A stretch of 64,000 nt of DNA from Candidatus Bathyarchaeia archaeon (GCA_035529595.1 DATKWK010000023.1:78517-142516); one strand, 5' to 3'. Numbered from the stretch's first letter, positions 757 to 49,224 are shown. Translations and numbers: made by a program. The notes: generated from the letters alone by a model not told the origin.

Positions 757-874
757 GATTATTTATATCTTATCAAAATTGACAGGTGTATATTATGGCC
801 TTTAGATAAAATACAAACAAATGGCTAAAGCAATAAGATTCTTCTTTAATGTGGTTTATCAAGGTCAAATAAAT

Positions 875-900
875 GGCAGGGGCTGGTGAACTTTGTCAGG
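875..900 (+). repeat. Cassette-boundary repeat copy 1 (core only: GGCAGGGGCTGGTGAACTTTGTCAGG)
   Basis: Matches the core of the repeat found at 2516, 6478, 7643, 8255, 9471. Confidence 0.7.
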
Positions 901-1003
901 AATCTATTTTTTTAGAAAAAAAATTGTTATAGAATCCGACTTAGTCTTCTCCTGACGTAATTTACGTTGCGGTTTGACAATATTTTTAGTATTATAGGCG
1001 ATA

Positions 1004-2461
1004 ATGACTGAAACTGAGACAAGAAGAGACGTCTCGCAAATACCTTCCCGACCTGATTTTGTTTCTCTTTTGCAGCAATCGGGGCGATTTGAGCAAGCAG
1101 AAGGAGAAATAATCATTAATTCTATTAATGCGAGAATGGAGTTAGTAGAAAGAGAATATGGGGAGAACCCGCTTTTAGCTCGAGTAGCGACAATAATGAC
1201 GGGAGCGATTGATTATGCAAGGGCCTGTGCTCTAAAGTTGCAGCCAGAGAGAGTTGATGAACATGGGGATGCGCTTACTGTAGGTGATGTTACCACTAAA
1301 AGAGATATTGAGATTTATCGGAGAGTCGTTGAAGTCTTAGACAGTACCGGTATGAAATTTGTTATGCGGGGGGAAATTGAGGCTAAGTTGACTAAAACGG
1401 ACGGAGAATGGGAAATAGAGGATCTTAGGGCAGACAGCACAGGTAAAAAAATAACAAGTTCCGGTACTAGTAATTGCCCTGAAGGAGAAGCAGACTGGGT
1501 GTTTGTTATCGACCCTCTTGATGGAAGCGTTAATGAGACGCAAGGTAAAAAATCGGGGACAGTATTGGCTTGTGCTAAGTATGGTGGCAAGTTAAAGATG
1601 AGAGATCTCGAGATTGGTGTGGTAGCCGACTATTTGGCTGGCAGAAATGGAAATGAACGAGGGACTCAGAGATGTGTTGGGGTTAGGGGCTTAGGAGCCA
1701 GGCTTTTAAGAGCAAGAGAAATTGAAAGAATAACATTACCTGAACCTTCGCCACTTGACGAAGTACCCACATTTGGTGCCTATACAAAGTTTCCTTGGCA
1801 GGAAGAGCAACAGAAATTATTAGCGCGAGTTGTCTCTGAGGTTCTTGGGCAGAAGCAACAGAGAAGCACAGATGCCACTGCAGCCTGTTCAGTTGCCGTA
1901 GCTACCGGGGAGTTTCGGACTCATTGTGACGCAAGAGAAGCGACGAAGCTTTGGGATACGATTGCTTCTTGGGTAGTCATTAACGAAGTCACCGGGTTAA
2001 AGATGACAGATTTATTTGGTTTTTCCTTCGATGAGGCAGTACTTTATGATCCTGCTAACGAGAAATATGCGAAGGATGGGGGAATAAACAGAGCGATTGG
2101 GAAGCATTTTGTAATTGGTAGAGAAGAAGATAATTTGGCAATCACGCGGGGGTATTGTGAAGCGATTTTTTTTGGTCTAAGAGCTTCCTTATTACCTGCA
2201 AAGCGGCTAGAGTATTGGCATGATGCTGGAGAAATATTCGCTCGCATTTTGGAGCACAGAATTGATATGGCTGAAGAAGACTACGGAATTATAACAAGAT
2301 CCGATGTAGAAAGGTTTGTTTGTATAGTTAGAGATTTTTATTGCCGTGACTTTAAACCTCTGGCTGATACGGGTAGACCCGAGGTAGTTATTCCTTACCA
2401 GGGGGGGCTACGGGTGTTTGATCAGATAACTGGAGATCGTATAAAACGGATAAAAGGTTAA
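1004..2461 (+). CDS. Inositol-monophosphatase/FBPase-fold (IMPase superfamily) protein with about 150-aa N-terminal extension; GC clearly higher than flanks
   Basis: WVFVIDPLDGSVNET (DPxDG[ST] metal-binding motif) and downstream LWDTIASWVVINEVTG (WDxAA-like motif). About 48 % GC versus about 33 % in flanks. Confidence 0.5.
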   Translation: MTETETRRDVSQIPSRPDFVSLLQQSGRFEQAEGEIIINSINARMELVEREYGENPLLARVATIMTGAIDYARACALKLQPERVDEHGDALTVGDVTTKRDIEIYRRVVEVLDSTGMKFVMRGEIEAKLTKTDGEWEIEDLRADSTGKKITSSGTSNCPEGEADWVFVIDPLDGSVNETQGKKSGTVLACAKYGGKLKMRDLEIGVVADYLAGRNGNERGTQRCVGVRGLGARLLRAREIERITLPEPSPLDEVPTFGAYTKFPWQEEQQKLLARVVSEVLGQKQQRSTDATAACSVAVATGEFRTHCDAREATKLWDTIASWVVINEVTGLKMTDLFGFSFDEAVLYDPANEKYAKDGGINRAIGKHFVIGREEDNLAITRGYCEAIFFGLRASLLPAKRLEYWHDAGEIFARILEHRIDMAEEDYGIITRSDVERFVCIVRDFYCRDFKPLADTGRPEVVIPYQGGLRVFDQITGDRIKRIKG

Positions 2462-2515
2462 CAAATATACCAAAACCTCATTCAAAAACCAGATAATTAA
2501 TGAATTATTTTTCAT

Positions 2516-2560
2516 GTAGCAGGGGCTGGTGAACTTTGTTAGAACCTATTTTAGAGAATA
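2516..2560 (+). repeat. Cassette-boundary repeat copy 2
   Basis: GTAGCAGGGGCTGGTGAACTTTGTTAGAACCTATTTTAGAGAA. Confidence 0.8.
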
Positions 2561-2634
2561 AGCGCGTAGTTTATCAACTTCTTTGAGTCACAATGATTTT
2601 GCTTATGGTTAAATCTTCCTGATATAATCGTTTT

Positions 2635-3171
2635 ATGACTGGCAAGAGCGATAAATACCAGACGATTGATACTTATAATAAGACAGCAAAGATTCATTCT
2701 CAAAAGTTTGAGAATTACGGAGCAAGAATTGAAGATATTGAAAAGGCCTTTTCTTACATTGATAAATCAAATCCTAAAGTAATTGACATTGGTTGCGGTG
2801 ACGGCAGAGATGCAAAAGAGATTACTAAAAAAACTGATGATTATCTTGGCATTGATTTATCGGTTGAGCTGATTAAGATTGCCAGAAAAAAAGTTCCCCG
2901 AGGAAATTTTATAATAGCCGATTTTGAAACCTTTGAATATCCGCAGGGAGTAGATATAGTGTTTGCCTTTGCTGCCATACTCCATTCAGGCAGAGGAAGC
3001 GTAAAAAAATTACTGAAGAAAGTTTATCGATCCCTTACTCCTGGAGGAATTTTTTTTATCTCAACAAAATATGGTTCTTATCGTAGGAAGGTGATTGATA
3101 GAGACGGGCCGAAAGTAAATTTTCTTTATCGGCCTGAGGATATAATAAAAATGTCACCGGCTTGGGCTTGA
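2635..3171 (+). CDS. Class I SAM-dependent methyltransferase (small, 178 aa)
   Basis: VIDIGCGDGRDAKEI (motif I, GxGxG), followed by an acidic residue after beta-2 and the DIVFAFAAILH motif. Confidence 0.65.
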   Translation: MTGKSDKYQTIDTYNKTAKIHSQKFENYGARIEDIEKAFSYIDKSNPKVIDIGCGDGRDAKEITKKTDDYLGIDLSVELIKIARKKVPRGNFIIADFETFEYPQGVDIVFAFAAILHSGRGSVKKLLKKVYRSLTPGGIFFISTKYGSYRRKVIDRDGPKVNFLYRPEDIIKMSPAWA

Positions 3172-3391
3172 GGCAGTTTATCAAGATACTCGAATCTTGA
3201 GAGGCCAGAAATGGTTGACGATTATTCTTAAAAAGAGTCAGTTAAGATGAAGTTATTTTGATTATGAAGCAAAAAACATTTGATATAATAAATTTTAATG
3301 ACTGAAGATTTTGGGCAACTAAACATCTTTTTTAGAAATTTAAGGGTATTGATATTTGTGATACGATGATAACAATCTTGTCTCTTGAGAG

Positions 3392-3718
3392 ATGACCAAA
3401 AAACTGAAATATTTTACTATTATAGGAATAATTGCAATAGCGATGCTTTTAATCGTTGCTTACTTCTCAAACTCACTGAAAATATTTGGTTTATGTAAAC
3501 CGGGAATGGAACTGGGTACTATGCCTGCCGGCAGTTTCTGCTATAAGCCTAGCGGATATGACGGTAAACCCTGCAATAGGCAGACCGATTGCGGAACTGT
3601 AAGCTGTGTTTTGGTGGATAGATATAGCTTGAAAGGAAAATGTGAGGACATAGTTTTTGGTTGCCACCAATTAATTGATAAAGACGGTAATCTCGAGTCT
3701 TTAGTTTGTATTGATTAA
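3392..3718 (+). CDS. Small secreted/membrane-anchored cysteine-rich protein (108 aa), hypothetical
   Basis: N-terminal hydrophobic helix; 9 Cys in the mature part. Confidence 0.4.
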   Translation: MTKKLKYFTIIGIIAIAMLLIVAYFSNSLKIFGLCKPGMELGTMPAGSFCYKPSGYDGKPCNRQTDCGTVSCVLVDRYSLKGKCEDIVFGCHQLIDKDGNLESLVCID

Positions 3719-3783
3719 TAACGGGGGTAAATTATAATCCTGAGCGAGGTCGAAGGATTGAAAATAGTAAGCTTTACCGAACC

Positions 3784-3812
3784 ACTTTGTTGGAAACTGG
3801 TTTAGGGAGCAG
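3784..3812 (+). repeat. Degenerate copy of cassette-boundary repeat core (GAACCACTTTGTTGGAAACTGGTTTAGGGAG)
   Basis: Aligns with ...GTGAACTTTGTTAGAACCTATTTTAGAGAA of the full copies. Confidence 0.45.
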
Positions 3813-4225
3813 ATGAACAGCTTGGTAGTCTTTAATTCTTCCTCTTTAACTCAGCTTTTGACAGTTTATTCTCGAATAATTATACTAGTTTTAAATGATG
3901 GGGCAGTCAAAACAAAACCAAGATCAAAAAACAGAGCCTCAGAAAGTAAAAAGCTCGATAATTATTCCTTCTAAAGGGAAGGTTCTTGTTGGTATTGAAA
4001 CAGTCGGCAGTAGGGTTTAACTGCGAATAATAAAGATTTTCCTTGGCCCTTCTTCATCGAAACTGAGAATCGGTGTTTATCTTTTATTGATAATGGAAGA
4101 AGATCTAAGGCAATCTGGTCTCCTAACTGGTTTGCCATCAATTTAAGAGCTAAGGAAAGGTTCTTAAGGTAAAACGGAGATGGAAGCCAAAAGAAAGACT
4201 TAATTAACTATACAATTTTAACCAA

Positions 4226-6421
4226 ATGATTTTTTGGCCGCAGAAAAAAAGAGACCTTAAAAAGGTTATCATCATTATTTTCATGCTTCTAGTTATTGCC
4301 TTTTCTTTAATTGCCGTCCTTTTTAAAAGATTCAAAAACCTTGCACAATTTCCACCTTGTGACAATCTCTCAACTTTACACCTTGATTCTCAAGTACTAA
4401 CTTGCCCTCAAAGGGTTGATGAGACCGGTTGGATAGTCGAAAATGCCCAAGTAAAAGTGTTCCCCCATTGTTTAACAGTTATGAATTCTCGTTTCGGTTC
4501 GCGTTTCAATCTCGACTGGTATTTCTCAAATCAAAAAGTCACCTCAAGCACAATCGGTACTTTTGCCGATTATGATGTTAATTTAAATTTGGTTGTTCAA
4601 GAGCCGGATAAGGCCGAACAGCTTTTCCCATTATCAGCCAATAGTGATTTTCCCAGGCAATCAGTTGACCTTGGTCTGACTTATGAAAAGATCAATTTCG
4701 AGAGTGAAGACCTTCTGCTTTCATTTAATATCGTTTCTCCATTTTCGCCCAGTCAGTCAAGTCGTGACGATAATACCAAATTAAGTACAGCCCCTTTCTT
4801 CTATCTAGAACTATCCTTGGTTAATAAAACACCACTTTCCCAGGTCAAAAATATCTCTCTTTCTCTCGGTAATGCTCGAGAAATTAAAGATAAAAAAGAT
4901 TATTCGGTGGCATATTTCAATGACTATGCCCGAGAAGACGGGCAGCTTGCTTTAGCCAGTAGCAGAAAACAAACCGATATTGCCTCATTTATTAACAATA
5001 ACCGCGGTGGTTTTATTTGGAAAGTAAACCTTAAACCTTATTCTCAAGATACGGTAAGATTTATTTACGCTGGTTATCTCGAAGGTACCTCCCTTACTGA
5101 TAGTCGCCAAGAGAAAAAAAGAGAACTCAAATTTGCCTACCAACAGTGGTTTAATAACATTGATTCAGTTATTAATTTTGCCTTAGATCACGAGCCGGAA
5201 ATTGAAGATAAAAGAAATAAATTTGAGCAGAATGCGAAGAAACTTTCTAAGTCTCCGAAAATGTACTGGCTCCTTGCTCAATCATTCCATTCTTATATTG
5301 GTAATACCTGGCTGGTTTTTGATAAGGAAAAAGACGATTTAGAATATTATGTTTGGGAAGGAGAGTTTAAATATCTTAACACTCTAGATGTTGCTCACGA
5401 CTATGGGGTTTTAGAAGGTATATATTTTCCCTGGGTGTTAAAAGCAGAACTCAAATCTTGGCAAAAGAGTGCTAAAAAAGACGAAAAAGGCACTGTTATT
5501 CCCCATGACTTAGGATCGCGTTTTGTTATTAAATCATCTCAGGCCTACGGCATTGACGGTTGGGAAACCTCTGGGATGCCAGTGGAAGAAAATGCAAATT
5601 TCATCCTACTTACATATTGGTATTGGCATCAAACTAAAGACCATCAGTTTATTAGGGAAATCACGCCATTTTTAAAAGAATTGATAAACTCTCTTATGGC
5701 ACGTGACGGTAACCAAAATGGCTTGGCTGACCAACTGATCAGGATGACTACCTATGATAATGACGGCAACTCTGCCTTAAAAGAGGCTCCTGACGGAACA
5801 TACCTTGGTTTAAAGCAGTTGGCCGCTTACCTTTCTGTTGAGAAAATTTTTCAATTTCTAAAAGAAGATGAGTATCAAAAGATAGTTAATGAAGAGGCTA
5901 AACTAATCGTTCAAAGCCTAGAAAAGGCCCAATCAACCTATGGTTTTATACCCCTTACGATAGATCCTTCTTTTCAGGAAAAAAACCAATTTAACAACCG
6001 AACTGTTTTAGGCACCGAGGAACAGGGTTTTGTTTTTATCAGCGGGTTATTCTATCATGCTCTTACCAATTTTGACCATCCTTTACTAAAAGAAATTATC
6101 CCTCTACTTTCTAAGAACTATCCCACCGCCTATCAAAAAAGTCTGGTAAAAAATGAGAGCGACGAGATCATTGGACTGAGGCTTGCCGAAAATCAAGACT
6201 TAGCTTTGGGTTGGTTTTCCCATAGTGTCATTGCCGATTATATTGCGAAAAAACTCTTTAATCAGAATTATCAATCTACAGAAATTTTCTTTCCCCTTCT
6301 TTATGACAATCCCTTTAGTTTTGCTGATGGCCAATTTTTTAAGAAACCTTTTTATCCTCCTCAAAATACTCTCGTTTTTTATCCTCGGGGAGTTTCTCTT
6401 TTTGCCTATCTCAAGGAATAA
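4226..6421 (+). CDS. Large membrane-anchored extracytoplasmic protein (731 aa), hypothetical; possibly an (alpha/alpha)6-type glycosidase-like fold
   Basis: Single N-terminal TM helix. No catalytic motif recognised with confidence. Confidence 0.35.
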   Translation: MIFWPQKKRDLKKVIIIIFMLLVIAFSLIAVLFKRFKNLAQFPPCDNLSTLHLDSQVLTCPQRVDETGWIVENAQVKVFPHCLTVMNSRFGSRFNLDWYFSNQKVTSSTIGTFADYDVNLNLVVQEPDKAEQLFPLSANSDFPRQSVDLGLTYEKINFESEDLLLSFNIVSPFSPSQSSRDDNTKLSTAPFFYLELSLVNKTPLSQVKNISLSLGNAREIKDKKDYSVAYFNDYAREDGQLALASSRKQTDIASFINNNRGGFIWKVNLKPYSQDTVRFIYAGYLEGTSLTDSRQEKKRELKFAYQQWFNNIDSVINFALDHEPEIEDKRNKFEQNAKKLSKSPKMYWLLAQSFHSYIGNTWLVFDKEKDDLEYYVWEGEFKYLNTLDVAHDYGVLEGIYFPWVLKAELKSWQKSAKKDEKGTVIPHDLGSRFVIKSSQAYGIDGWETSGMPVEENANFILLTYWYWHQTKDHQFIREITPFLKELINSLMARDGNQNGLADQLIRMTTYDNDGNSALKEAPDGTYLGLKQLAAYLSVEKIFQFLKEDEYQKIVNEEAKLIVQSLEKAQSTYGFIPLTIDPSFQEKNQFNNRTVLGTEEQGFVFISGLFYHALTNFDHPLLKEIIPLLSKNYPTAYQKSLVKNESDEIIGLRLAENQDLALGWFSHSVIADYIAKKLFNQNYQSTEIFFPLLYDNPFSFADGQFFKKPFYPPQNTLVFYPRGVSLFAYLKE

Positions 6422-6429
6422 TTTATATT

Positions 6430-6535
6430 CCCACCTCAAGGTGGTTTTCTCCTTGCACCTGGGATATTTTTTCAATTTTTGAGCCTAAAAAGCAGGGGCT
6501 GGTAAACTTTGTTGGAACTTATTTTAGAGAAAGTT
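6430..6535 (+). repeat. Cassette-boundary repeat copy 3 (extended form: palindrome module CACCTCAAGGTGG + core)
   Basis: ...ATTTTTTCAATTTTTGAGCCTAAAAAGCAGGGGCTGGTAAACTTTGTTGGAACTTATTTTAGAGAAAG. The upstream module is shared with copy 4. Confidence 0.8.
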
Positions 6536-6652
6536 TTAATAATTCTTCAATGACAGTTAGTCAAGGATGCACTTAAGTTCCCACATCACCTCTTTATAAA
6601 GTTAATAAATTAGCTTAAACTGTGTTCTTGATACTTAATATTTTTTAGACAC

Positions 6653-6696
6653 TTGACATTGTGTGAAAATCTTTGCTAGTGTTTCTATGTATGAAG
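6653..6696 (+). promoter_or_regulatory. Promoter-like TTGACA...TAGTGT/TATGTAT upstream of the 6776 ORF
   Basis: TTGACA at 6653, AT-rich -10 candidates 18-25 nt downstream. Confidence 0.3.
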
Positions 6697-6728
6697 TTAA
6701 ACTGGGCTACCTATTTAACTTAGTTATT

Positions 6729-6754
6729 AAATCCGCTTATGGGCGGATTTTTTT
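6729..6754 (+). terminator. Intrinsic-terminator-like hairpin plus T-run in the 5' leader of the 6776 ORF (possible attenuator)
   Basis: AATCCGCttatgGGCGGATTTTTTTT immediately followed by RBS AGGAGGTG and the ATG. Confidence 0.5.
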
Positions 6755-6775
6755 ATGGAAAGGAGGTGAAAAAGA

Positions 6776-7537
6776 ATGAATTACAAGTTATTAATCAGTA
6801 TTTTTACAGCCTCGTTGGTATCAGTTTCTATATTTGTCATAGGATTTTTCATGGGTCAAACAAAAGTTTCTCCCCAGCCTCCTCAACAAGTCATTTTAGG
6901 AGAAAAAAATCAATCCGCAAGCAAGGACTGTATTACCATTCAAGACGGTAAACTGACTTATTCGCCGGGCCATTATCTTGACGAAACTCCGATTTCGACA
7001 GGTTATGATGAGTATGGATACAATTATCAAGCTCACATGTTTAATGGCTCATATGCCAATGTTTACCTTGGCGGAGGCGACTTTCCACCTTATAAAGGTA
7101 ACGATGTAGAATATTTGGCCGAAAATCCTGGGGCAGAAAATGAATGGTATTGGCCTTATCGAGATGTTGAATTGCTGATGAGATGGAACGATAGTTGGAT
7201 TGCCAATCAGGATTGTGACGACGATGGTTTATTGGACAGGCACTTTGGTAATACTAGCTATGTAGGTTCTGGGGCCTGGGAGACTAATCATCAATCAGGC
7301 GTTTATGAAGTTGAAGGCAGAACCTGTAAGTGGAATTATTTCGTCAAGATTGTAGCTGTCCCCGCTGATGCTATATTGGAAAATGGTATCTGGAAAACGG
7401 CCAACGGGGCCGAAATTGGCCTTGATATTTGGGGTCAGTTTGCCATAATTCAACAAATTTACAATGACCCGTGTGAAGGATCCCACGGGGTAGAATATCT
7501 CAGTCCTGCCGGACCTGGATTTGGCAAGTGGAAATAG
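6776..7537 (+). CDS. Secreted hypothetical protein (253 aa, signal/anchor helix)
   Basis: Strong RBS AGGAGGTG; N-terminal hydrophobic segment. No recognisable motifs. Confidence 0.45.
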   Translation: MNYKLLISIFTASLVSVSIFVIGFFMGQTKVSPQPPQQVILGEKNQSASKDCITIQDGKLTYSPGHYLDETPISTGYDEYGYNYQAHMFNGSYANVYLGGGDFPPYKGNDVEYLAENPGAENEWYWPYRDVELLMRWNDSWIANQDCDDDGLLDRHFGNTSYVGSGAWETNHQSGVYEVEGRTCKWNYFVKIVAVPADAILENGIWKTANGAEIGLDIWGQFAIIQQIYNDPCEGSHGVEYLSPAGPGFGKWK

Positions 7538-7596
7538 GAAACGCTGATTCAGCTTTCAGTGTCCAAAATATAGCCACTTTTCCTTAAAGTAAATAC

Positions 7597-7690
7597 ACCT
7601 TGGAGGTGTCTTTCCCTTGACACCTTGGAAATTTTTCAATTTCTGAGCCTAAAAAGCAGGGGCTAGTGAACTATGTTAGAACCTGGTTTA
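7597..7690 (+). repeat. Cassette-boundary repeat copy 4 (extended form with palindrome CACCTTGGAGGTG)
   Basis: ...GGAAATTTTTCAATTTCTGAGCCTAAAAAGCAGGGGCTAGTGAACTATGTTAGAACCTGG. Confidence 0.8.
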
Positions 7691-8197
7691 TTAACTCTTG
7701 ATATTATTTAAGCTGAAAAAGTGAAATTTATCTACACCCCAACCCGGGGGATACAATCCAAAGCCTTGAGGTTTGGCAATTTCCCGAGCACCAAGATTCT
7801 TGAAGTAGCGATATGAATTGATATTTGTTTTTCTGATAACGGCTACCAAGAGTGCTTTTTTATAAGTATGTTTAGCCGTAGATAACAGTTCATTAATCAT
7901 TTTCTTGGCAATGCCTTTCTTTCGGTATCCGGGATGGACGACTAGGGAACCGACTTCAAGAACTGGCGTGTTATCTTTCTTGCCATTTTCAAAGAACTTA
8001 GCAAAGCCGACAGTAATATTGTTGAATAAGGCAAGAACTCCCTGGTTTTCTTTCAAAATTCTTTCTATCTCTTGTTCTTCCAGAACTAACATGTGAGACT
8101 TTTCTTGCCGGAGAAGATTTCTGATCTGCCTTATGTGAGAACTATTATCTGTGTAGTGGAAAAGCTTAATTTCAGTTTTTTCTCTTTTCTGCATCAT
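7691..8197 (-). CDS. GNAT family N-acetyltransferase
   Basis: VHPGYRKKGIAKKMINELL = acetyl-CoA-binding motif A (R/Q-x-x-G-x-G/A). Confidence 0.7.
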   Translation of the reverse strand: MMQKREKTEIKLFHYTDNSSHIRQIRNLLRQEKSHMLVLEEQEIERILKENQGVLALFNNITVGFAKFFENGKKDNTPVLEVGSLVVHPGYRKKGIAKKMINELLSTAKHTYKKALLVAVIRKTNINSYRYFKNLGAREIAKPQGFGLYPPGWGVDKFHFFSLNNIKS

Positions 8198-8254
8198 GAC
8201 TAAAATTATACCCTTTTTATTAAATCTAGAGCGAGAAGTACGAAGAAGAAGGTT

Positions 8255-8295
8255 GCAACAGGGGCTAGTGAACTTTGTTAGAAACTACTTTGCGG
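8255..8295 (+). repeat. Cassette-boundary repeat copy 5
   Basis: GCAACAGGGGCTAGTGAACTTTGTTAGAAACTACTTTGCGG. Confidence 0.75.
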
Positions 8296-8323
8296 ATGTT
8301 CGCAATTCATGTAGAATATTATT

Positions 8324-8911
8324 ATGGCCGAAAAGTGTGTTGGTGAGATAAAAAAAGCTGGTTTGATTGGTGTGATCTATGAGGTGAGGATAAGACTCGA
8401 GCCTTTGGTTAAGGCTATTCAGGAGGGTGCCTTGGAACCTGATGATTTTCAGAAAGTGGCTGATTTTGGTGCTGGCTATGGTAATTCTGCAAGAGCGATT
8501 ATGATCGCCATGCCCGGAGCAGATATAACTGCACTAGAACAGAACGAGGAGCTTGCTGAAGTGATTATTAAGAGAGGCATACTGCCAGAAGAGAGAGTAA
8601 AAAGAGGTGATGGGATAGACTTTTTATCAGAAAGTAGGAACGCTCGAAAATTTACATTAGTTACCGCCTTTGGTTTGGAGCCGATTAAAGATAGCAGTTT
8701 GTTCAAAAAGTTCGTCATTGCTGCGGATAATGCCCTTAGAGATAAAGGAAAGCTACTAATAGAATCCGACGCTAAAAGCATGGGAGTTGTTCGTAGCGAA
8801 TTGAGAAAAGCTAGTGTGAATGCTTATTCGAGAGATGTCGGTCTGGGAGGTATGGTTGTTTTGACTCGTGACGAATGCGATAAGGTAGCTTCGTATTATA
8901 ACAGTATATAA
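8324..8911 (+). CDS. SAM-dependent methyltransferase-like protein (195 aa), GC higher than flanks
   Basis: VADFGAGYGNSARAI (motif I). Confidence 0.5.
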   Translation: MAEKCVGEIKKAGLIGVIYEVRIRLEPLVKAIQEGALEPDDFQKVADFGAGYGNSARAIMIAMPGADITALEQNEELAEVIIKRGILPEERVKRGDGIDFLSESRNARKFTLVTAFGLEPIKDSSLFKKFVIAADNALRDKGKLLIESDAKSMGVVRSELRKASVNAYSRDVGLGGMVVLTRDECDKVASYYNSI

Positions 8912-8950
8912 GCAAGATAGAATTTGGGTCTTTTTTTTGAATTAAGATAG

Positions 8951-9010
8951 TTTGGCAGAGGCTAAAGCCTGTCCGCCTCTGGAGGAAACTTTGTTAGTAA
9001 CTTCTATCAG
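8951..9010 (+). repeat. Cassette-boundary repeat copy 6 (variant: hairpin GGCAGAGGC...GCCTCTGG + GAAACTTTGTTAGTAAC)
   Basis: Shares the AACTTTGTTAG(A/T)AAC tail with the other copies. Confidence 0.55.
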
Positions 9011-9423
9011 GCTGAAAGATACTTATCGATAAACAAACCAACCTTTTCGTTTACTTGTTTAATAACGTCAGGGTAGAGGCGGTAATCGTGGGTACAATTA
9101 ATTTTGTGTAACTCTTTTGGCTCAGGAATTGTCTTATAAATTTCTCTGACCTGTTTAGGTGTAGTGAACTCATCTTTGGTGGCATAAAAAATAATTTTAG
9201 GTTTCATGCAAGTTTTTAAGACTTCTGCGTCATTATATTTACTTCCATCTTTGAAGTAGTTTAATGAAGCTGTAAACTTCTTTTTATTCTTAGTCCTTTT
9301 TGTGCCGGGAGGCAAATCTCTGTAATCAATATATAGACCAGCTTTTAAGGTTTTGGTATCAGGTGGCGAGGGAGTTCCTAATGATGGATTAATTAAAACT
9401 TTAGCATTAAAAGGGGACGGTTC
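9007..9423 (-). pseudogene. C-terminal fragment of an alpha/beta-hydrolase (about 100-138 aa; intact enzymes about 250-300 aa)
   Basis: ...IIFYATKDEFTTP...CTHDYRLYP: the Asp and His of the catalytic triad at the usual C-terminal spacing. No nucleophile-elbow region. The annotated start (9315) is TTG and the frame is open back to 9423, where it abuts repeat copy 7. Confidence 0.45.
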
Positions 9424-9470
9424 TCAATCAGGTACGAGATTAGTAACTTCCAATAATTTTTGGTTTATGT

Positions 9471-9550
9471 CTGAGGCTAAAAAGCAGGGGCTGGTGAACT
9501 ACAATCGTGTAAACCGATTTGTAGTAAACTATGTTGGAAACTATTTTCAG
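9471..9550 (+). repeat. Cassette-boundary repeat copy 7 with a 25-nt hairpin insertion (ACAATCG...CGATTTGT) inside the core
   Basis: CTGAGGCTAAAAAGCAGGGGCTGGTGAACT[acaatcgtgtaaaccgatttgtagta]AACTATGTTGGAAACTATTTTCAG. Confidence 0.75.
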
Positions 9551-10086
9551 ATTTGAGTTAGTTGATATGTCCAACCAGGTTGCCATTTCCAAGGGGCTGG
9601 AATGACTTCTTTTAAAGGTAAACCTTTAATTAAATGTTCTAATCCATATTGAGTAGCCCTGTGTCCAATTATCATTACCTTCTTATTATCATAATCTCTA
9701 AGCAAGTCCCGGAGAAAATTTTCCATTCTTTCTGAACATTGAGAATAGCTTTCTCCATTAGGAAAGGGGACATTAATTCTTTTTGGTTTTTCTGCATCAA
9801 CCTCACTACTTGGATGTTGGGTATAATCTCCGTAATCGCACTCTCTTAATCTTTTATCTTGAATGATTGGAAGGTTTCTGTTTGGAAATGCAATCTCTCC
9901 AGTTTTGTATGATCTTTGTAAGTCAGAACAGAAGATTGCATCAAAAGTGACATTCTTGTATCTTTCTCCCAGCTCTGCAGCTTGTTTTTCTCCAAGTGAG
10001 GAAAGTTCCACATCAAAATGTCCAGAAGAAAGATGTGTTTCGTTATCTTTAGTTGTTCCGTGTGATTCAAAAACTACTTCAACCAT
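9547..10086 (-). CDS. Histidine phosphatase (phosphoglycerate-mutase-like) family protein with atypical SHG instead of RHG
   Basis: VVFESHGTTKDNE (RHG-like motif, R replaced by S) and downstream IIGHRATQ (second conserved His). Confidence 0.6.
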   Translation of the reverse strand: MVEVVFESHGTTKDNETHLSSGHFDVELSSLGEKQAAELGERYKNVTFDAIFCSDLQRSYKTGEIAFPNRNLPIIQDKRLRECDYGDYTQHPSSEVDAEKPKRINVPFPNGESYSQCSERMENFLRDLLRDYDNKKVMIIGHRATQYGLEHLIKGLPLKEVIPAPWKWQPGWTYQLTQI

Positions 10087-10101
10087 ACGGGAATTCTAAC
10101 A

Positions 10102-10270
10102 CATTTGAGCCTAAAAAGCAGGCCTTAGTTGACGACATTCCCACCTCCAAGGTGTGTTTCCCCTTGCTGGTAAACACCTTCTTTCACTTCGGAGGTGCTT
10201 TTCTTCCTGTACCTTGGGAAGGTAAGGAATATCACCTTCAAGTTGTAAAAGTCCTGTTTCGAAGGGTATA
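10102..10270 (+). repeat. Cassette-boundary repeat copy 8 (5' core TTGAGCCTAAAAAGCAGG followed by a palindrome-rich module: CACCTCCAAGGTG, CACTTCGGAGGTG, CACCTTCAAGTTG)
   Basis: The core is truncated after AGCAGG. The downstream segment carries the same palindrome type as the upstream modules of copies 3 and 4. Confidence 0.55.
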
Positions 10271-10279
10271 TTTGGCGCC

Positions 10280-10549
10280 CTAATCTGTTTCAAGTGTGTT
10301 TTTAAGCATCTGCTTTATTCTTCGCCAACCAGCGGTTGTTTTAAAGTATTTTTCGCAGCTGATCGCGTCTTTTTGATTATTAAACGAACAATAGAAAATT
10401 AATTCGTAAGGAACATTAGGTTTAGTGGCTTTATTCTCGCCTTGATTATGTTCTTTTAGCCTGATTTTTAGGTCAGAAGTGAAGCCAATGTAAAGCTTAT
10501 TATTTCTCTTACTTCTGAGAATGTAAGTATAGAAGTACTGGCCGGCCAC
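10280..10549 (-). CDS. GIY-YIG nuclease domain protein (small stand-alone, 89 aa)
   Basis: YFYTYILRS..NKLYIGFTSDLKIRLKEHN = GIY...YIG motif with conserved R and E/N. Confidence 0.75.
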   Translation of the reverse strand: MAGQYFYTYILRSKRNNKLYIGFTSDLKIRLKEHNQGENKATKPNVPYELIFYCSFNNQKDAISCEKYFKTTAGWRRIKQMLKNTLETD

Positions 10550-10642
10550 GTTCAGTGTGATTTCTCCTTTCCGAATCGACTAGTCAAATCTTTTTAAATT
10601 AGTTGACATAAACTCGATACATATTTAGTTGACACATGAACG

Positions 10643-10716
10643 TGGCAGGGGCGGAGGGAATCGAACCCCCGATTGCTGTTTTGGAGACAGCAGTTATACC
10701 ACTTAACTACGCCCCT
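10643..10716 (-). tRNA. tRNA-Trp (anticodon CCA), 3'-CCA encoded
   Basis: rc = AGGGGCGTAGTTAAGTGGTATAACTGCTGTCTCCAAAACAGCAATCGGGGGTTCGATTCCCTCCGCCCCTGCCA. Anticodon loop CUCCAAA; 7-bp acceptor stem. Confidence 0.85.
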
Positions 10717-21194: not shown

Positions 21195-21794
21195 ATGAAA
21201 GGAGAAAAACAAGATTTTCAACCAACGGTTGCTTCCGAAAGAAGGAAACGACTTATTTTGCTGTTGTTTGTTTTCCTGATTTTACTTTTATTAATCGGCT
21301 GGCAGAAAGCACGATCGGCAAGATATGTTCCGCCCCCGATTAAATTTGAAAAAGAAGTTTCTCCCCGGGCTGATAGCCGTTTGTGGTTTGAACCGGAAAA
21401 TATTGAGGTAAAAATAAATTCTATTTTCCCCTTGATGATAAAAGTTGACACCGGACAAAATACCGCTGCCGCTGTCAAAATTGCCTTAAAATTTGATCCG
21501 GAAGTTTTGGAAGTAATTGATCTCATCCCCAGTGATTTTTTTCAACCGCCGCTGATTCTGGAAAAAAAGACCAATAATGTTGCCGGCACTATTTTTGTAA
21601 CCTTGGCTTGTCCGCCCGAACAGCCCAAACAGGGCAGCGGTAATTTATTTCTGGTTAACTATAAGGTTAAAGAAATCAGCAGTAAAAAGACGACTACAGT
21701 TGAGTTTCTGCCTCAAACTGAAATTGCCGCAATTAAAGAGCAGGGTAGCGTTTTAAAATTTCCCGAGAAGGCTACTATTGCCGTGGTTGAATAA
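21195..21794 (+). CDS. Membrane-anchored cohesin-like domain protein (199 aa)
   Basis: N-terminal TM. A beta-rich domain (...AAAVKIALKFDPEVLEVIDLIPSDFF...GNLFLVNYKVKEI...) is paralogous to the next gene and resembles cohesin modules. Confidence 0.45.
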   Translation: MKGEKQDFQPTVASERRKRLILLLFVFLILLLLIGWQKARSARYVPPPIKFEKEVSPRADSRLWFEPENIEVKINSIFPLMIKVDTGQNTAAAVKIALKFDPEVLEVIDLIPSDFFQPPLILEKKTNNVAGTIFVTLACPPEQPKQGSGNLFLVNYKVKEISSKKTTTVEFLPQTEIAAIKEQGSVLKFPEKATIAVVE

Positions 21795-22711
21795 TGAGTA
21801 AAGTCAAACTTTTTCTGGTAGTCATTGGTTTGATTCTGGTTTTGGCCGGGGTAGTTATCGGCGTTATTTTGGTCCGTCGGCGCCAGGAAGCCAGACTTAA
21901 GGCAGCGCCGGCGACGACACTCTCTTTCAGGCCGGCTGCCGTAACTGCAGAACAGGGGGGGAGTTTTGCTCTCGAAATCGTCGTTGATAGCGGCGAAAAT
22001 ACTCTGGCCGCAGTTGAGCTTCATCTAGCTTATGATCCTGAATATTTTGAGGTTTCCTCGATTATACCCGGTTCTTTTTTCGACTCACCGGTAGAGCTTA
22101 AGAAGGATACTGGTACTCTTGGTAGGATTGTTTATATTCTCGGTTGCCGTCCGGAGGGAGCTCAACAGGGTCAGGGTACTTTGGCAAGTCTGACTTTTTC
22201 GGTTAAACCTGATGCTGCTTCAGGAGTACCTTCGGAAATTAGTTTTTTGGCTTCGAGCCAGGCAGCCGGAATCAGTGAGGGCCAGGAAAATGTCGTCGTT
22301 GGTACTACTTCCTGTTTGGTGACGGTGGCCCAGGTTCAGCCTAGCGTGACACCAACTATAGCGCCAAGTTTAACACCGACTTTAGCGTCAACACCTACCT
22401 TAGTGCCATCAGCAACACCGACGCCAACGACACCTCCTTTACCGCCAACGGCTACCCCGACCCAGGCAGCCAGCTCGACTCCGACAGTTCCTGCTCCGAC
22501 TGCCACACCCACTCGCCAGCCGACTACCGTCCCGTCCAACACGCCGACTCCTCGTCCGACCGCCACACCAGTGCCGACTTCAGCGCCGGGCTTGACGGCA
22601 ACTCCGACTCCTCATTCAACAGTGCCGGTAACCGGTGGATTATGGCCAACCGCGGGTTTGTTTTTGGGAGCTTTACTGCTGGTATTTTTTGGTGTTGTTT
22701 ATACCTGGTGA
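21794..22711 (+). CDS. Cohesin-like domain protein with Pro/Thr-rich stalk and C-terminal hydrophobic anchor (305 aa)
   Basis: N-terminal TM/signal. Cohesin-like domain (...LAAVELHLAYDPEYFEVSSIIPGSFF...GTLASLTFSVKP...). Long TP(T/S) linker. C-terminal VPVTGGLWPTAGLFLGALLLVFFGVVYTW, a sorting-signal-like anchor lacking a basic tail. Confidence 0.5.
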   Translation: MSKVKLFLVVIGLILVLAGVVIGVILVRRRQEARLKAAPATTLSFRPAAVTAEQGGSFALEIVVDSGENTLAAVELHLAYDPEYFEVSSIIPGSFFDSPVELKKDTGTLGRIVYILGCRPEGAQQGQGTLASLTFSVKPDAASGVPSEISFLASSQAAGISEGQENVVVGTTSCLVTVAQVQPSVTPTIAPSLTPTLASTPTLVPSATPTPTTPPLPPTATPTQAASSTPTVPAPTATPTRQPTTVPSNTPTPRPTATPVPTSAPGLTATPTPHSTVPVTGGLWPTAGLFLGALLLVFFGVVYTW

Positions 22712-48339: not shown

Positions 48340-49224
48340 GTGGCCAAACAAGAAGCCGAATCAAGATTTGATTTCGTACCTAGCCCAGAAATTCTTTATC
48401 TCGAGAGCCCGGAGCAACTTCAGGACAGAGAGATTTTTGTCTATCGGGTACATGATCCTGAACCGATGTTTGCGCGCCAGGTAGTGGAGAGGCTTTGGGG
48501 AATAGCAGGTGAAGTAAATCCAGGAACTGAAATGCCTATTAAATTTTACCGGAGAATGCCTCATGGAATTAAAAGCGATTCGGTTCATGACGAGTTCAAT
48601 ATATCTTTGGCAGTGCCGATTGAAAATCAATTAGCGGAAGCATTAGGAATTTGTCAGGGATTAGCTTTTATTGATCGGAAGAATTCCGATCTTCCGTGGA
48701 ATTTAGTGGTTGAAAGCCCGGTGATCGCCTCAAGCGAAGGAGACGCTAGTCATTTTTTATTGATTGATCTTGATGGTAAGGTTAATAGCCTAGATCAGTT
48801 CGTAATCGAAAATAGTTTTAAAGCAGCCGGTTTTTCCGGGTTTTTATTGGTTAGCGGCGCCTCTTATCATTACTGGTCTGATTTTACTGTTTCGGCGGAT
48901 AGTCTGCCGGCTTTTTTGGGGACTGCGGCTGCGGCTTTAACACCGCAAGTTTCCGATAATGATCGTTTATTGTCGATTGCTTTTCGAATGTCAGTTTGCC
49001 AAAATTTGGCAGAAGGTCAGGAATTAGCTTCTCAAATTCTTAACCGGAACAGCGCTCTTTTTATTCCTTCTTCAGGCAGTGGTTTTAAAAGCGGGAGTTT
49101 TTTTGATTTTCGCTGGGCTTGTCACCGTTTATTAGCCGGGAAATTAGCTTTGAGGGTAAGTTCGGACCGATATCCGCAAGAACCGATATTGATTTCCGAA
49201 TTAACGGCCAGAAGCTTTTCATGA
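48340..49224 (+). CDS. Hypothetical protein (294 aa)
   Basis: No recognisable motif. Follows the acidic paralog in the same way the 469-aa protein does. Confidence 0.4.
   Translation: MAKQEAESRFDFVPSPEILYLESPEQLQDREIFVYRVHDPEPMFARQVVERLWGIAGEVNPGTEMPIKFYRRMPHGIKSDSVHDEFNISLAVPIENQLAEALGICQGLAFIDRKNSDLPWNLVVESPVIASSEGDASHFLLIDLDGKVNSLDQFVIENSFKAAGFSGFLLVSGASYHYWSDFTVSADSLPAFLGTAAAALTPQVSDNDRLLSIAFRMSVCQNLAEGQELASQILNRNSALFIPSSGSGFKSGSFFDFRWACHRLLAGKLALRVSSDRYPQEPILISELTARSFS

Follow-up and report, generated by a model that had tools for sequence, protein, structure and literature searches.

The question raised by this locus is what its repeats are, and whether they are bound, expressed or recombined. 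The locus lies in a 64,000-nt stretch from a record labelled Candidatus Bathyarchaeia archaeon (GCA_035529595.1, DATKWK010000023.1:78517-142516), the whole of which is called the window below. A preliminary description of its sequence noticed what it called a cassette repeat, and took the copies to be sites that are cut and rejoined rather than protein-binding operators. This last proposal was supported: the ends of the array are half-sites, the 3′ end of a tRNA-Trp gene is the shared core of the repeat, and relatives differ by whole cassettes at the sites. We consider it probable that the repeats are att-type (attachment) recombination joints of nine cassettes in tandem, which entered the chromosomal tRNA-Trp gene one by one at its very 3′ terminus.

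Anatomy of the joint

Copies in the window were defined by repeat finding, profile search and multiple alignment. All of them are on the plus strand, at 865-911, 2513-2556, 3784-3807, 6476-6529, 7640-7691, 8258-8293, 8986-9009, 9468-9549 and 10106-10122. In the profile search, the copies at 3784-3807 and 8986-9009 consist of the tail only, that at 10106-10122 is a 5′ half, and that at 9468-9549 is split by an insertion into 9468-9501 and 9522-9549. No further joint copies were found in the rest of the window or in the 8 kb upstream on the source contig. The repeat family is real and greatly exceeds chance. A 23-nt core segment matched three times in the window against 0.00 expected, and a 15-nt tail 16 times against 4.3 expected.

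The nine cassettes are mostly single-gene and occupy 872-10642, where the array terminates at tRNA-Trp. Counting the tRNA, the window has ten joints in one orientation, with one open reading frame (ORF) between successive joints (two in cassette 2). These ORFs lie on either strand and their products are unrelated from cassette to cassette.

The joint consensus has 47 nt: a 5′ half of about 13 nt (yTGAGGCTAwwTT), an 8-bp core (GCAGGGGC) and a 26-nt 3′ half (TAGTAAACTTTGTCAGGAACTTCTTT). In a logo of 158 distinct full sites from the survey described below, the edges of the site are sharp, with a conserved block from -13 to +33 relative to the core and no conservation outside it. The core is nearly invariant, at 2.0-2.5 bits per position, and is the reverse complement of the end of the tRNA-Trp acceptor 3′ strand, the discriminator and C74. 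The exchange point is inside GCAGGGGC, since the array ends are half-sites and distal copies carry a CC(A) remnant before the core. The preliminary description had divided the repeat into a palindrome module and a conserved core; its real bipartition is into a 5′ half and a 3′ half on either side of the 8-bp crossover core.

Half-sites at the array ends

A scan with CAGGGGCTRGTRAACTWTGTYRG, limited to one genome per species, gave 21 loci. About half of them have names of Patescibacteria lineages; most of the others are labelled uncultured Gammaproteobacteria, and one Bathyarchaeia. The Gammaproteobacteria and Bathyarchaeia labels on array records look like binning or naming errors. A scan of metagenomes gave more than 100 further loci, which is a lower bound, and the survey set comprised 140 loci (751 kb; given L-numbers here). 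These loci were short, mostly 8 kb or less, and several of their organism labels are unreliable. A profile search of the 140 loci, labelled as or resembling Patescibacteria, revealed 357 joint copies. The lineages in the record titles include Microgenomates, Woesebacteria, Amesbacteria, Beckwithbacteria and Paceibacterota; the same arrays also occur in loci L003, L005, L012, L014, L017, L018, L020 and L021, which are labelled Gammaproteobacteria. In L004, which is labelled Bathyarchaeia, the genes on the tRNA-Trp side have 55-60% protein identity to those of the window, and the cassettes are different. None of the arrays in the 140 loci had copies in mixed orientation, and the median spacing between joints was 603 bp (5-95% range, 220-1672).

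Position weight matrices for the two halves were trained on full sites, so that the score of internal sites is circular and those of the other classes are independent. Internal sites had a median of +7.0 bits for the 5′ half and +37.5 bits for the 3′ half. At junctions with tRNA (n = 30) the medians were +3.9 and -61.8 bits, at the first copies of arrays (n = 49) -5.2 and +32.7 bits, and in random sequence -8.9 and -56.6 bits. The array ends are thus half-sites. All 30 unique junctions read as 5′ half, GCAGG(G) and tRNA-Trp body. tRNA-Trp was by far the commonest nearby tRNA. Apart from the window, 36 loci have it, and in every one of them it occupies the 3′ end of the array and runs antisense to the repeats. 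The final half-copy in L020, ...TGAGGCTAATTT-GCAGGGGC-GGAGGGAATCGAACC..., and the tRNA-Trp gene are one and the same. The trinucleotide NGG preceded CAGG in 12 of 50 first copies compared with 5 of 170 internal ones, and this excess fits a retained encoded CC(A).

Fragments of the tRNA-Trp 3′ end were also observed. L017 (~3150-3186) and L021 (4464-4500) end in such fragments (GCAGGGGCGGAGG...), and another is present in L007 (minus-strand orientation, ~5309 in reversed coordinates). Such fragments, inside arrays that lack a full tRNA or at their ends, would be the expected remnants of older insertions or of rearrangements that displaced part of the tRNA.

In each internal joint, the upstream cassette contributes its right end as the 5′ half and the downstream cassette its left end as the 3′ half, with the core between them. 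These observations suggest the following mechanism. A circular cassette with one full site would recombine with the tRNA-proximal joint, or with another joint, by reciprocal exchange within the 6-8 bp core, and exchange between two joints would release a cassette. The core has the same sequence as the final bases of the acceptor stem together with the discriminator and C74, and insertion therefore rebuilds tRNA-Trp. At the far end of the array, the former trailer of the tRNA is retained along with the core and a 3′ half (865-911 in the window; aaaTGGCAGGGGCTGG), and at the tRNA end a 5′ half is retained with the core and the tRNA body. The enzyme, which our searches did not identify, would act in trans. 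A tyrosine recombinase seems most likely, because the crossover segment is 6-8 bp; the asymmetric site leaves the type open.

Differences between related loci

Whole cassettes distinguished the loci of three closely related pairs. L122 and L089 are alike on the left (95.5% identity over 760 nt) and in the tRNA (98.8%). The sequence of L122 is ...CATAATGCTTT/GCAGGG/CTGTCAGGATTTGAACC (tRNA). L089 reads ...CATAATGCTTT/GCAGGG/GCTAGTGGACTATATCAGAACTTGGTTT, followed by ~680 bp with a 197-residue ORF and then by ...GGTTATTTT/GCAGGG/CTGTCAGG... (tRNA). It therefore has one extra cassette of ~680 bp, bounded by GCAGGG, exactly between the previous cassette and tRNA-Trp, and the pair thus compares an empty with an occupied site. 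L046 and L094 have a common flank (96%) and a common second cassette (90.5% over 634 nt); their first cassettes are unrelated and the later content is different. L082 and L063 have both flanks in common (93-96%) and none of three cassettes. Their tRNA-Trp stretches gave no blastn match with each other, and L063 is ~660 nt longer between the tRNA and the common right flank; the tRNA gene may have been replaced between these two loci.

A cassette with a GIY-YIG gene, which has its own variant of the 5′ half (..GCAAGGTGCAGAATTGTACCTT/GCAGG), adjoins the tRNA in L003 and has no adjacent tRNA in L007, L041 and L069. The bare GIY-YIG-domain protein (~90 residues) is the second commonest gene family near arrays. 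It was seen in the window (10280-10549, minus strand) and in L003, L007, L008/L028/L098/L137, L041 and L069. It is always antisense to the repeats and co-oriented with tRNA-Trp, and in several loci it is the gene nearest to the tRNA. We considered whether this protein is the mobilizing enzyme, which was not supported: it is recurrent cargo (seven distinct contexts), is absent from most arrays, and is a bare catalytic domain.

The cargo of the arrays is dominated by small nucleotide- or RNA-handling enzymes, namely NUDIX, 2H phosphoesterases, HAD, HD, deaminases, methyltransferases and acetyltransferases. Two cargo ORFs matched the aminoglycoside nucleotidyltransferase family. Among 243 ORFs inside arrays, 123 were on the strand of the repeats and 120 on the opposite one.

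Palindromes and altered copies

The motifs listed in the preliminary description were all found where it had placed them. The palindromes of the two longer copies are CACCTCAAGGTGG (6432-6444) and CACCTTGGAGGTG (7596-7608), and the junction TTTTTCAATTT(T/C)TGAGCC follows at 6468-6485 and 7632-7649. The three palindromes near the last copy are CACCTCCAAGGTG (10142-10154), CACTTCGGAGGTG (10185-10197) and CACCTTCAAGTTG (10233-10245), and the tail AACTTTGTTAGTAAC is at 8987-9001. The architecture drawn from them did not hold. CACCT..AGGTG lies upstream of the core in only 2 of 282 sites from the 140 loci, both of which are the window copies, and a search for the palindrome showed that the pattern recurs only in this part of the window. 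We therefore rejected the palindrome module as a general part of the site. Folding of both strands, which had been proposed as a check, gave single copies no better than shuffled sequences, save for hairpins outside the conserved block.

The palindrome modules (6431-6475, 7595-7639 and 10142-10245) are each just past the 3′ end of a cassette gene. In the first two, T-rich sequence follows and a simple terminator pattern is matched; the total of such matches in the region is not above that in shuffled sequence. Between copies the outermost stem pair changes from C:G to A:T with pairing kept (by inspection). On this sequence evidence, the palindromes look like cassette-internal, terminator-type hairpins that are common to related cassettes.

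Three altered copies required correction. A self-complementary insertion of 25 nt had been placed precisely inside the core of the copy at 9473. The self-complementary stretch exists (about 9497-9526), but the insertion has 30 nt (about 9502-9531), is flanked by a duplication of GT(G/A)AACTA, and sits 10 nt past the crossover core, within the 3′ half; the reading frame of the small ORF described below is preserved. Short insertions occur at a similar place in the window copy at 3783 and in L003, L029, L053, L056 and L104. The 3783 copy (junction 3) has a 13-nt insertion in its 3′ half, which reads TAGTAAGCTTT(ACCGAACCACTTT)GTTGGAAAC with the insertion in brackets, and related insertions (..GCCGAACCAC) are present in L053 and L104. 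The copy at 8987 was said to have an unrelated hairpin in place of its 5′ part and to keep its tail. The tail is indeed kept, but the 5′ half is still recognizable as GAGGCTAAAGC (8958-8968); the part that was replaced is GCAGGGGCTGGT, and in the place of the core stands CTGTCCGCCTCTGGAG, a sequence that pairs with this 5′ half. The copy at 10106 does precede a module with three palindromes as described, but its structure is a 5′ half with GCAGG joined to a different sequence, and this GCAGG/CCTTAGT joint recurs in other genomes. We read the two decayed copies (3783 and 8987), and likewise the 9473 copy with its 30-nt insertion, as probably disabled sites, which would hold the neighboring cassettes in place. 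The gene of cassette 7 (ORF 9007-9315, 102 residues) matches only the C-terminal part of the alpha/beta-hydrolase-like family PhoPQ_related (profile positions 245-320 of 367). It is apparently decayed or truncated, and both of its flanking joints are damaged too.

A possible translation start in the joint

The 47-nt block can be read in one frame as the start of a small gene. A Shine-Dalgarno-like GAGG is 5 nt ahead of TTG, ATG or CTG in 114 of the 158 sites. After the start codon come 11 conserved codons, Q-G-L-V-N-(F/Y)-V-(R/G)-(N/T)-(F/Y/W)-(F/Y), which are seen at 6463-6525 of the window and in every full joint. Estimated from the per-position counts of the 158 sites, the variability at codon positions 1, 2 and 3 is about 0.04, 0.13 and 0.19. 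Third-position changes are mostly synonymous, and three positions stay aromatic by means of TTC, TAT, TAC and TGG. When all 16 codons were tested for their synonymous fraction, this frame stood apart only weakly, with 0.234 compared with 0.054-0.214 in the others. At ordinary joints the small ORFs are short (median, 24 residues), and their tails are not conserved. Of 78 stops, 29 fall between -10 and +15 nt relative to the start of a cargo gene on the same strand, which may be due in part to tight gene packing.

The variant joint GCAGG/CCTTAGT... (type B) starts an ORF of 34-42 residues, MQALVxxLRTIWHKxxSFxxxKxxxFLNPQ..., the start of which is homologous to the joint and the protein sequence of which is conserved in eight genomes or more. 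Outside the window the type-B joint occurs in L002 (twice), L011, L012, L013, L014, L017 and L019. The first 12 residues of the type-B protein align with the repeat peptide and are encoded by other codons (Leu, TTA vs CTA; Arg, CGA vs AGG). Arrays L011, L013 and L019 end at the type-B small gene instead of tRNA-Trp. Only a single homologue, a 39-residue protein, was found among 5.8 billion proteins, and gene callers almost never predict the type-B ORF. In the window, an ORF of 76 residues (10053-10283, plus strand) spans the last half-site and the three palindromes (..KQALVDDIPTSKVCFPLLVNTFF..), and its start is like that of the type-B small ORF; the palindrome region may be either coding or structural. 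Likeness of the 3′ half and of the type-B sequence to a tRNA was also considered and rejected, as inspection showed no T-arm pairing. From sequence comparison, the gene-start look of the joint may reflect translation of the joint or translational coupling, or the site may descend from the beginning of the small gene.

Searches for a recombinase and points against the att-type reading

The searches used XerD, the recombinase of L020 and a resolvase as probes, and a motif scan that covered tyrosine and serine recombinases. The ORFs scanned against Pfam numbered 40 in the window, 20 in fetched loci and 150 in cassettes. Among the families that two or more of these 150 matched, there was neither a recombinase nor a transposase-like one. 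The window contains neither the host Xer genes nor the dif site. The site was not found in IMG/VR viral contigs, annotated phages or plasmids. Rfam over the array (gathering threshold and E ≤ 1) gave only tRNA-Trp and a sub-threshold Trp_leader unrelated to the repeats. Full-text literature searches, which included site sequence strings, found no published description, and a paper on gene transfer in Patescibacteria does not mention tRNA, integrase or cassettes.

Several points weigh against the repeats being recombination joints of mobile cassettes. No recombinase was found in the window or the 8 kb upstream by tblastn and blastp probes and Pfam. In the 140 loci (874 ORFs), blastp probes and the motif scan found only one Xer-like gene, in L020; it has the XerC/D domain layout and is beside a tRNA cluster, and nothing links it to the array. 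By inspection of the logo, the site is without the dyad symmetry usual for core sites of tyrosine and serine recombinases. As the sites were collected by a pattern derived from the window, the logo is biased to similar copies and diversity is underestimated. Much of the conservation of the site and its 3′ half may be due to a coding or translation-start function rather than to recombinase binding. Circular cassette contigs were looked for and none was found. All contigs of the window's own population carry the same array; current activity in the window's own genome is something we infer.

Alternative explanations

The absence of a linked recombinase would also be explained if the cassettes were exchanged by the homologous pathway, with no part for a dedicated site-specific enzyme. 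RecA would act after natural transformation, with the 47-nt blocks as conserved translation-start modules that serve as homology handles. The coding-like signature of the block, with GAGG 5 nt before TTG/ATG, fits this explanation, and the window encodes DprA and RecR, which points to uptake and recombination functions. The mosaics between relatives could also stem from exchange in flanks or blocks. However, the tRNA and distal joints share only 5-8 bp with the block, which is too short for RecA, and yet they are precise in 30 tRNA junctions. Moreover, the 5′ half of the GIY-YIG cassettes is unrelated to the canonical one and is still joined exactly at GCAGG. Homologous exchange also accounts for the turnover of cassettes and not for the origin of the arrays. 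We regard it as unlikely. Target-specific transposition seems less likely again. Non-autonomous cassettes would be moved by a transposase in trans, and GCAGGGGC would be a 6-8 bp target-site duplication at the tRNA-Trp end. Every cassette is flanked by the same direct repeat of 6-8 bp and has defined conserved ends, and again no tyrosine- or serine-type recombinase is linked. Against this, the cassette ends are not inverted repeats of each other in the logo, and the Pfam scan of cassette ORFs gave no recurrent transposase-like family. The duplicated segment is also always the same, and its near-invariance fits a matching overlap region better than an arbitrary duplication.

The word cassette in the preliminary description hinted at an integron. 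We give very little credence to a classical integron array, or a cluster of attC sites lacking integron-integrases (CALIN), in which the repeats would be attC sites recombined by IntI as folded single strands. There are single-gene cassettes between sites of the same orientation, the tail GTTAGAA / GTCAGGA is superficially like the attC R′ box GTTRRRY, and GNAT, methyltransferase and NUDIX cargo is, from general knowledge, also common in integron cassettes. However, attC identity was refuted on its defining feature. No imperfect inverted repeat or hairpin is present, and neither single copies on both strands nor 80 sites folded beyond shuffled controls (mean z-score of the 80 sites, +0.31 on the top and +0.76 on the bottom strand). 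Conservation concerns the sequence of the site, not its structure, and the crossover would be in GCAGGGGC, not in GTT. Gene orientation is unbiased, and no IntI-like gene, adjacent or otherwise, was found in the window, the 8 kb upstream or the 140 loci. Equally disfavoured is a static repeat, a regulatory leader or small-ORF start spread by local duplication, with the adjacency of tRNA-Trp coincidental. The likeness of the block to a translation start with a conserved 12-residue peptide agrees with it, as does the proximity of small-ORF stops to the starts of same-strand cargo genes in 29 of 78 cases. But half of the cargo genes are antisense to the block and the cargo is mutually unrelated, and half-site ends, a constant tRNA-Trp geometry in 36 loci and single-cassette differences would not be expected. 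Repeats of the miniature inverted-repeat transposable element (MITE) or repetitive extragenic palindromic (REP) type were rejected as well: the joint is without inverted repeats or a stable fold, and the window copies are confined to 865-10122.

Features of the array

The features of the array and the type-B small ORFs are listed below.

Table. Coordinates of array features in the window and of type-B small ORFs in survey loci.
Feature	Coordinates	Strand	Remarks
Distal array end, attL-like	865..911	+	chromosomal flank, TGG (reverse complement of CCA), core GCAGGGGC 876-883, 3′ half; without 5′ half
Cassette 1	912..2512	+	inositol-monophosphatase-like ORF 1004-2461
Junction 2	2513..2556	+	core and 3′ half, degenerate 5′ half
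Cassette 2	2557..3724	+	S-adenosylmethionine (SAM) methyltransferase ORF 2635-3171; 108-aa ORF 3392-3718
Junction 3, decayed	3725..3810	+	hairpin AATCCT..AGGATT in place of 5′ half and core
Cassette 3	3811..6430	+	GH52-like glycoside hydrolase ORF 4226-6421
Palindrome module 1	6431..6475	+	CCACCTCAAGGTGG, then T-run; 10 nt past cassette 3 gene stop; terminator-like
Junction 4, full site	6476..6529	+	5′ half TGAGCCTAAAAA, core GCAGGGGC 6492-6499, 3′ half TGGTAAACTTTGTTGGAACTTATTTT
Cassette 4	6530..7594	+	253-aa ORF 6776-7537, without family; own promoter-like and terminator-like leader
Palindrome module 2	7595..7639	+	ACACCTTGGAGGTGT overlapping GAGGTGTC..GACACCTT; ~60 nt past cassette 4 gene stop; terminator-like
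Junction 5, full site	7640..7691	+	core 7656-7663
Cassette 5	7692..8253	-	GNAT acetyltransferase ORF 7691-8197
Junction 6	8254..8293	+	core variant ACAGGGGC and 3′ half; without canonical 5′ half
Cassette 6	8294..8953	+	methyltransferase-like ORF 8324-8911
Junction 7, decayed	8954..9009	+	5′-half-like GAGGCTAAAGC (8958-8968) and 3′ tail AAACTTTGTTAGTAACTTC kept
Cassette 7	9010..9467	-	truncated hydrolase-like ORF 9007-9315
Junction 8, full site	9468..9549	+	core 9484-9491; 30-nt hairpin-forming insertion in 3′ half
Cassette 8	9550..10105	-	histidine phosphatase ORF 9547-10086
Junction 9	10106..10122	+	5′ half TGAGCCTAAAAA and GCAGG (10118-10122), joined to CCTTAGTTGAC..., variant 3′ half (type B)
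Cassette 9, adjoins tRNA	10123..10642	-	three palindromes 10142-10245; GIY-YIG ORF 10280-10549 (-); TTAGTTGAC repeats
tRNA-Trp(CCA), integration target	10643..10716	-	3′ end on plus strand TGG-C-AGGGGCG; core GCAGGGGC 10645-10652
Type-B small ORF, L014	346-462
Type-B small ORF, L011	~749-857	-
Type-B small ORFs, L002	~664-780, ~2850-2970
Type-B small ORF, L106	966-1148
Type-B small ORFs, L012, L013, L017, L019

The right end of cassette 9 (..ACGTG) provides the encoded CCA of tRNA-Trp, and rpmG and other core genes are beyond the tRNA on the right. The sequence TTAGTTGAC is present in three direct copies (10126-10134, 10600-10608 and 10626-10634) that flank the GIY-YIG gene on both sides. One copy is directly after the GCAGG of the last half-site and two are just before the 3′ end of tRNA-Trp. 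These repeats may be the end sequences of cassette 9.

Upstream of ORF 6776-7537 (6653-6775) there is a TTGACA promoter-like box, a leader of ~70 nt, a strong terminator-like hairpin (6729-6750) with a T-run, and AGGAGG-ATG. The layout of this leader resembles an attenuator or riboswitch, and its sole match in Rfam was a sub-threshold Trp_leader (22.5 bits, E = 0.66). Outside the array and unrelated to it, the window has an ORF with an archaeo-eukaryotic-primase-like domain (48340-49224, plus strand). It also has two adjacent cohesin-domain ORFs (21195-22711, plus strand) beside a large ORF that is annotated as an S8 peptidase in L023.

Implications

It is quite conceivable, if somewhat short of probable, that these arrays represent a cassette system of Patescibacteria with two entry points, tRNA-Trp and the start of a small gene of ~38 residues. 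Its 47-bp double-stranded joint would also be a translation start, and its unlinked recombinase would be of a type that cannot be predicted from the asymmetric site. If this is true, the system would be a functional analogue of integrons with an independent origin in a lineage of tiny genomes. Patescibacteria have very small genomes and few recognized mobile elements, and how they gain accessory genes is an open question. If many lineages have in common a cassette platform at one tRNA gene, this would give them a concrete and testable way to acquire and lose genes. The types of cargo point to salvage, housecleaning and perhaps defence or resistance functions that are traded as single genes. 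The 47-nt site may also serve as a marker in metagenomes, both for arrays and for misbinned contigs.

Comparison with known systems

In several respects the arrays are like integrons and CALINs. The cassettes are small and mostly single-gene, the sites have the same orientation, there is a fixed entry point at one end, and the cargo consists of accessory enzymes. The pair L089 and L122 shows a cassette added at the entry-point end, as in integrons. In contrast to integrons, the site is a conserved 47-bp sequence without a hairpin, and the entry point is the 3′ end of tRNA-Trp rather than an attI site by intI. The arrays also have no adjacent integrase, and their genes face either way, which implies that they are not expressed from one common promoter.

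Short ORFs at recombination sites have a precedent in ORF-11, which overlaps attI1 in class 1 integrons and aids translation of the first cassette. Similarly, the joint, probably a recombination site, carries a putative ribosome-binding site and start codon for a short ORF, and the stop of this ORF often abuts the start of the next gene. Unlike at attI1, the arrays appear from their sequences to have a small-ORF start in every joint and not only at the entry site, with 11 codons conserved across lineages.

Modules that depend on Xer, such as the pdif modules of Acinetobacter plasmids and the Xer-exploiting integrative elements at dif, are also small, lie between short sites, and have their recombinase encoded elsewhere. 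GTAAACT in the 3′ half of the joint may resemble the outer part of a XerD-binding arm. However, the array site has no 28-bp 11-6-11 dyad, the sites are oriented the same way and do not alternate, and the partner is the end of a tRNA gene, not dif. By inspection of the 158-site logo, the two halves of the joint share direct, not inverted, similarity (GGCTA..AA.TT).

Islands that target tRNA genes, cis-mobilizable accretion elements and tycheposons resemble the arrays in that they enter a tRNA gene at its 3′ end and restore the tRNA, and in that older elements are pushed outward by later ones. Tandem elements of this kind also have degenerate remnants and tRNA fragments inside the island. The tycheposons of Prochlorococcus have tyrosine or large serine recombinases and kilobases of cargo (bioRxiv 10.1101/2020.12.28.424599). 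In comparison, the array units have one gene at a median spacing of ~603 bp, and neither an integrase nor a replication module. They share only GCAGG(GGC), 5-8 nt, with the tRNA, whereas a partial tRNA of roughly 40 nt is usual, and the rest of the joint is derived from the element and conserved across many lineages. The array thus works like an integron and sits like a tRNA-targeting accretion island. It fails the defining tests of both, because it has neither the attC fold nor IntI of the former, and neither partial-tRNA repeats of tens of nt nor a detected element-borne integrase of the latter.

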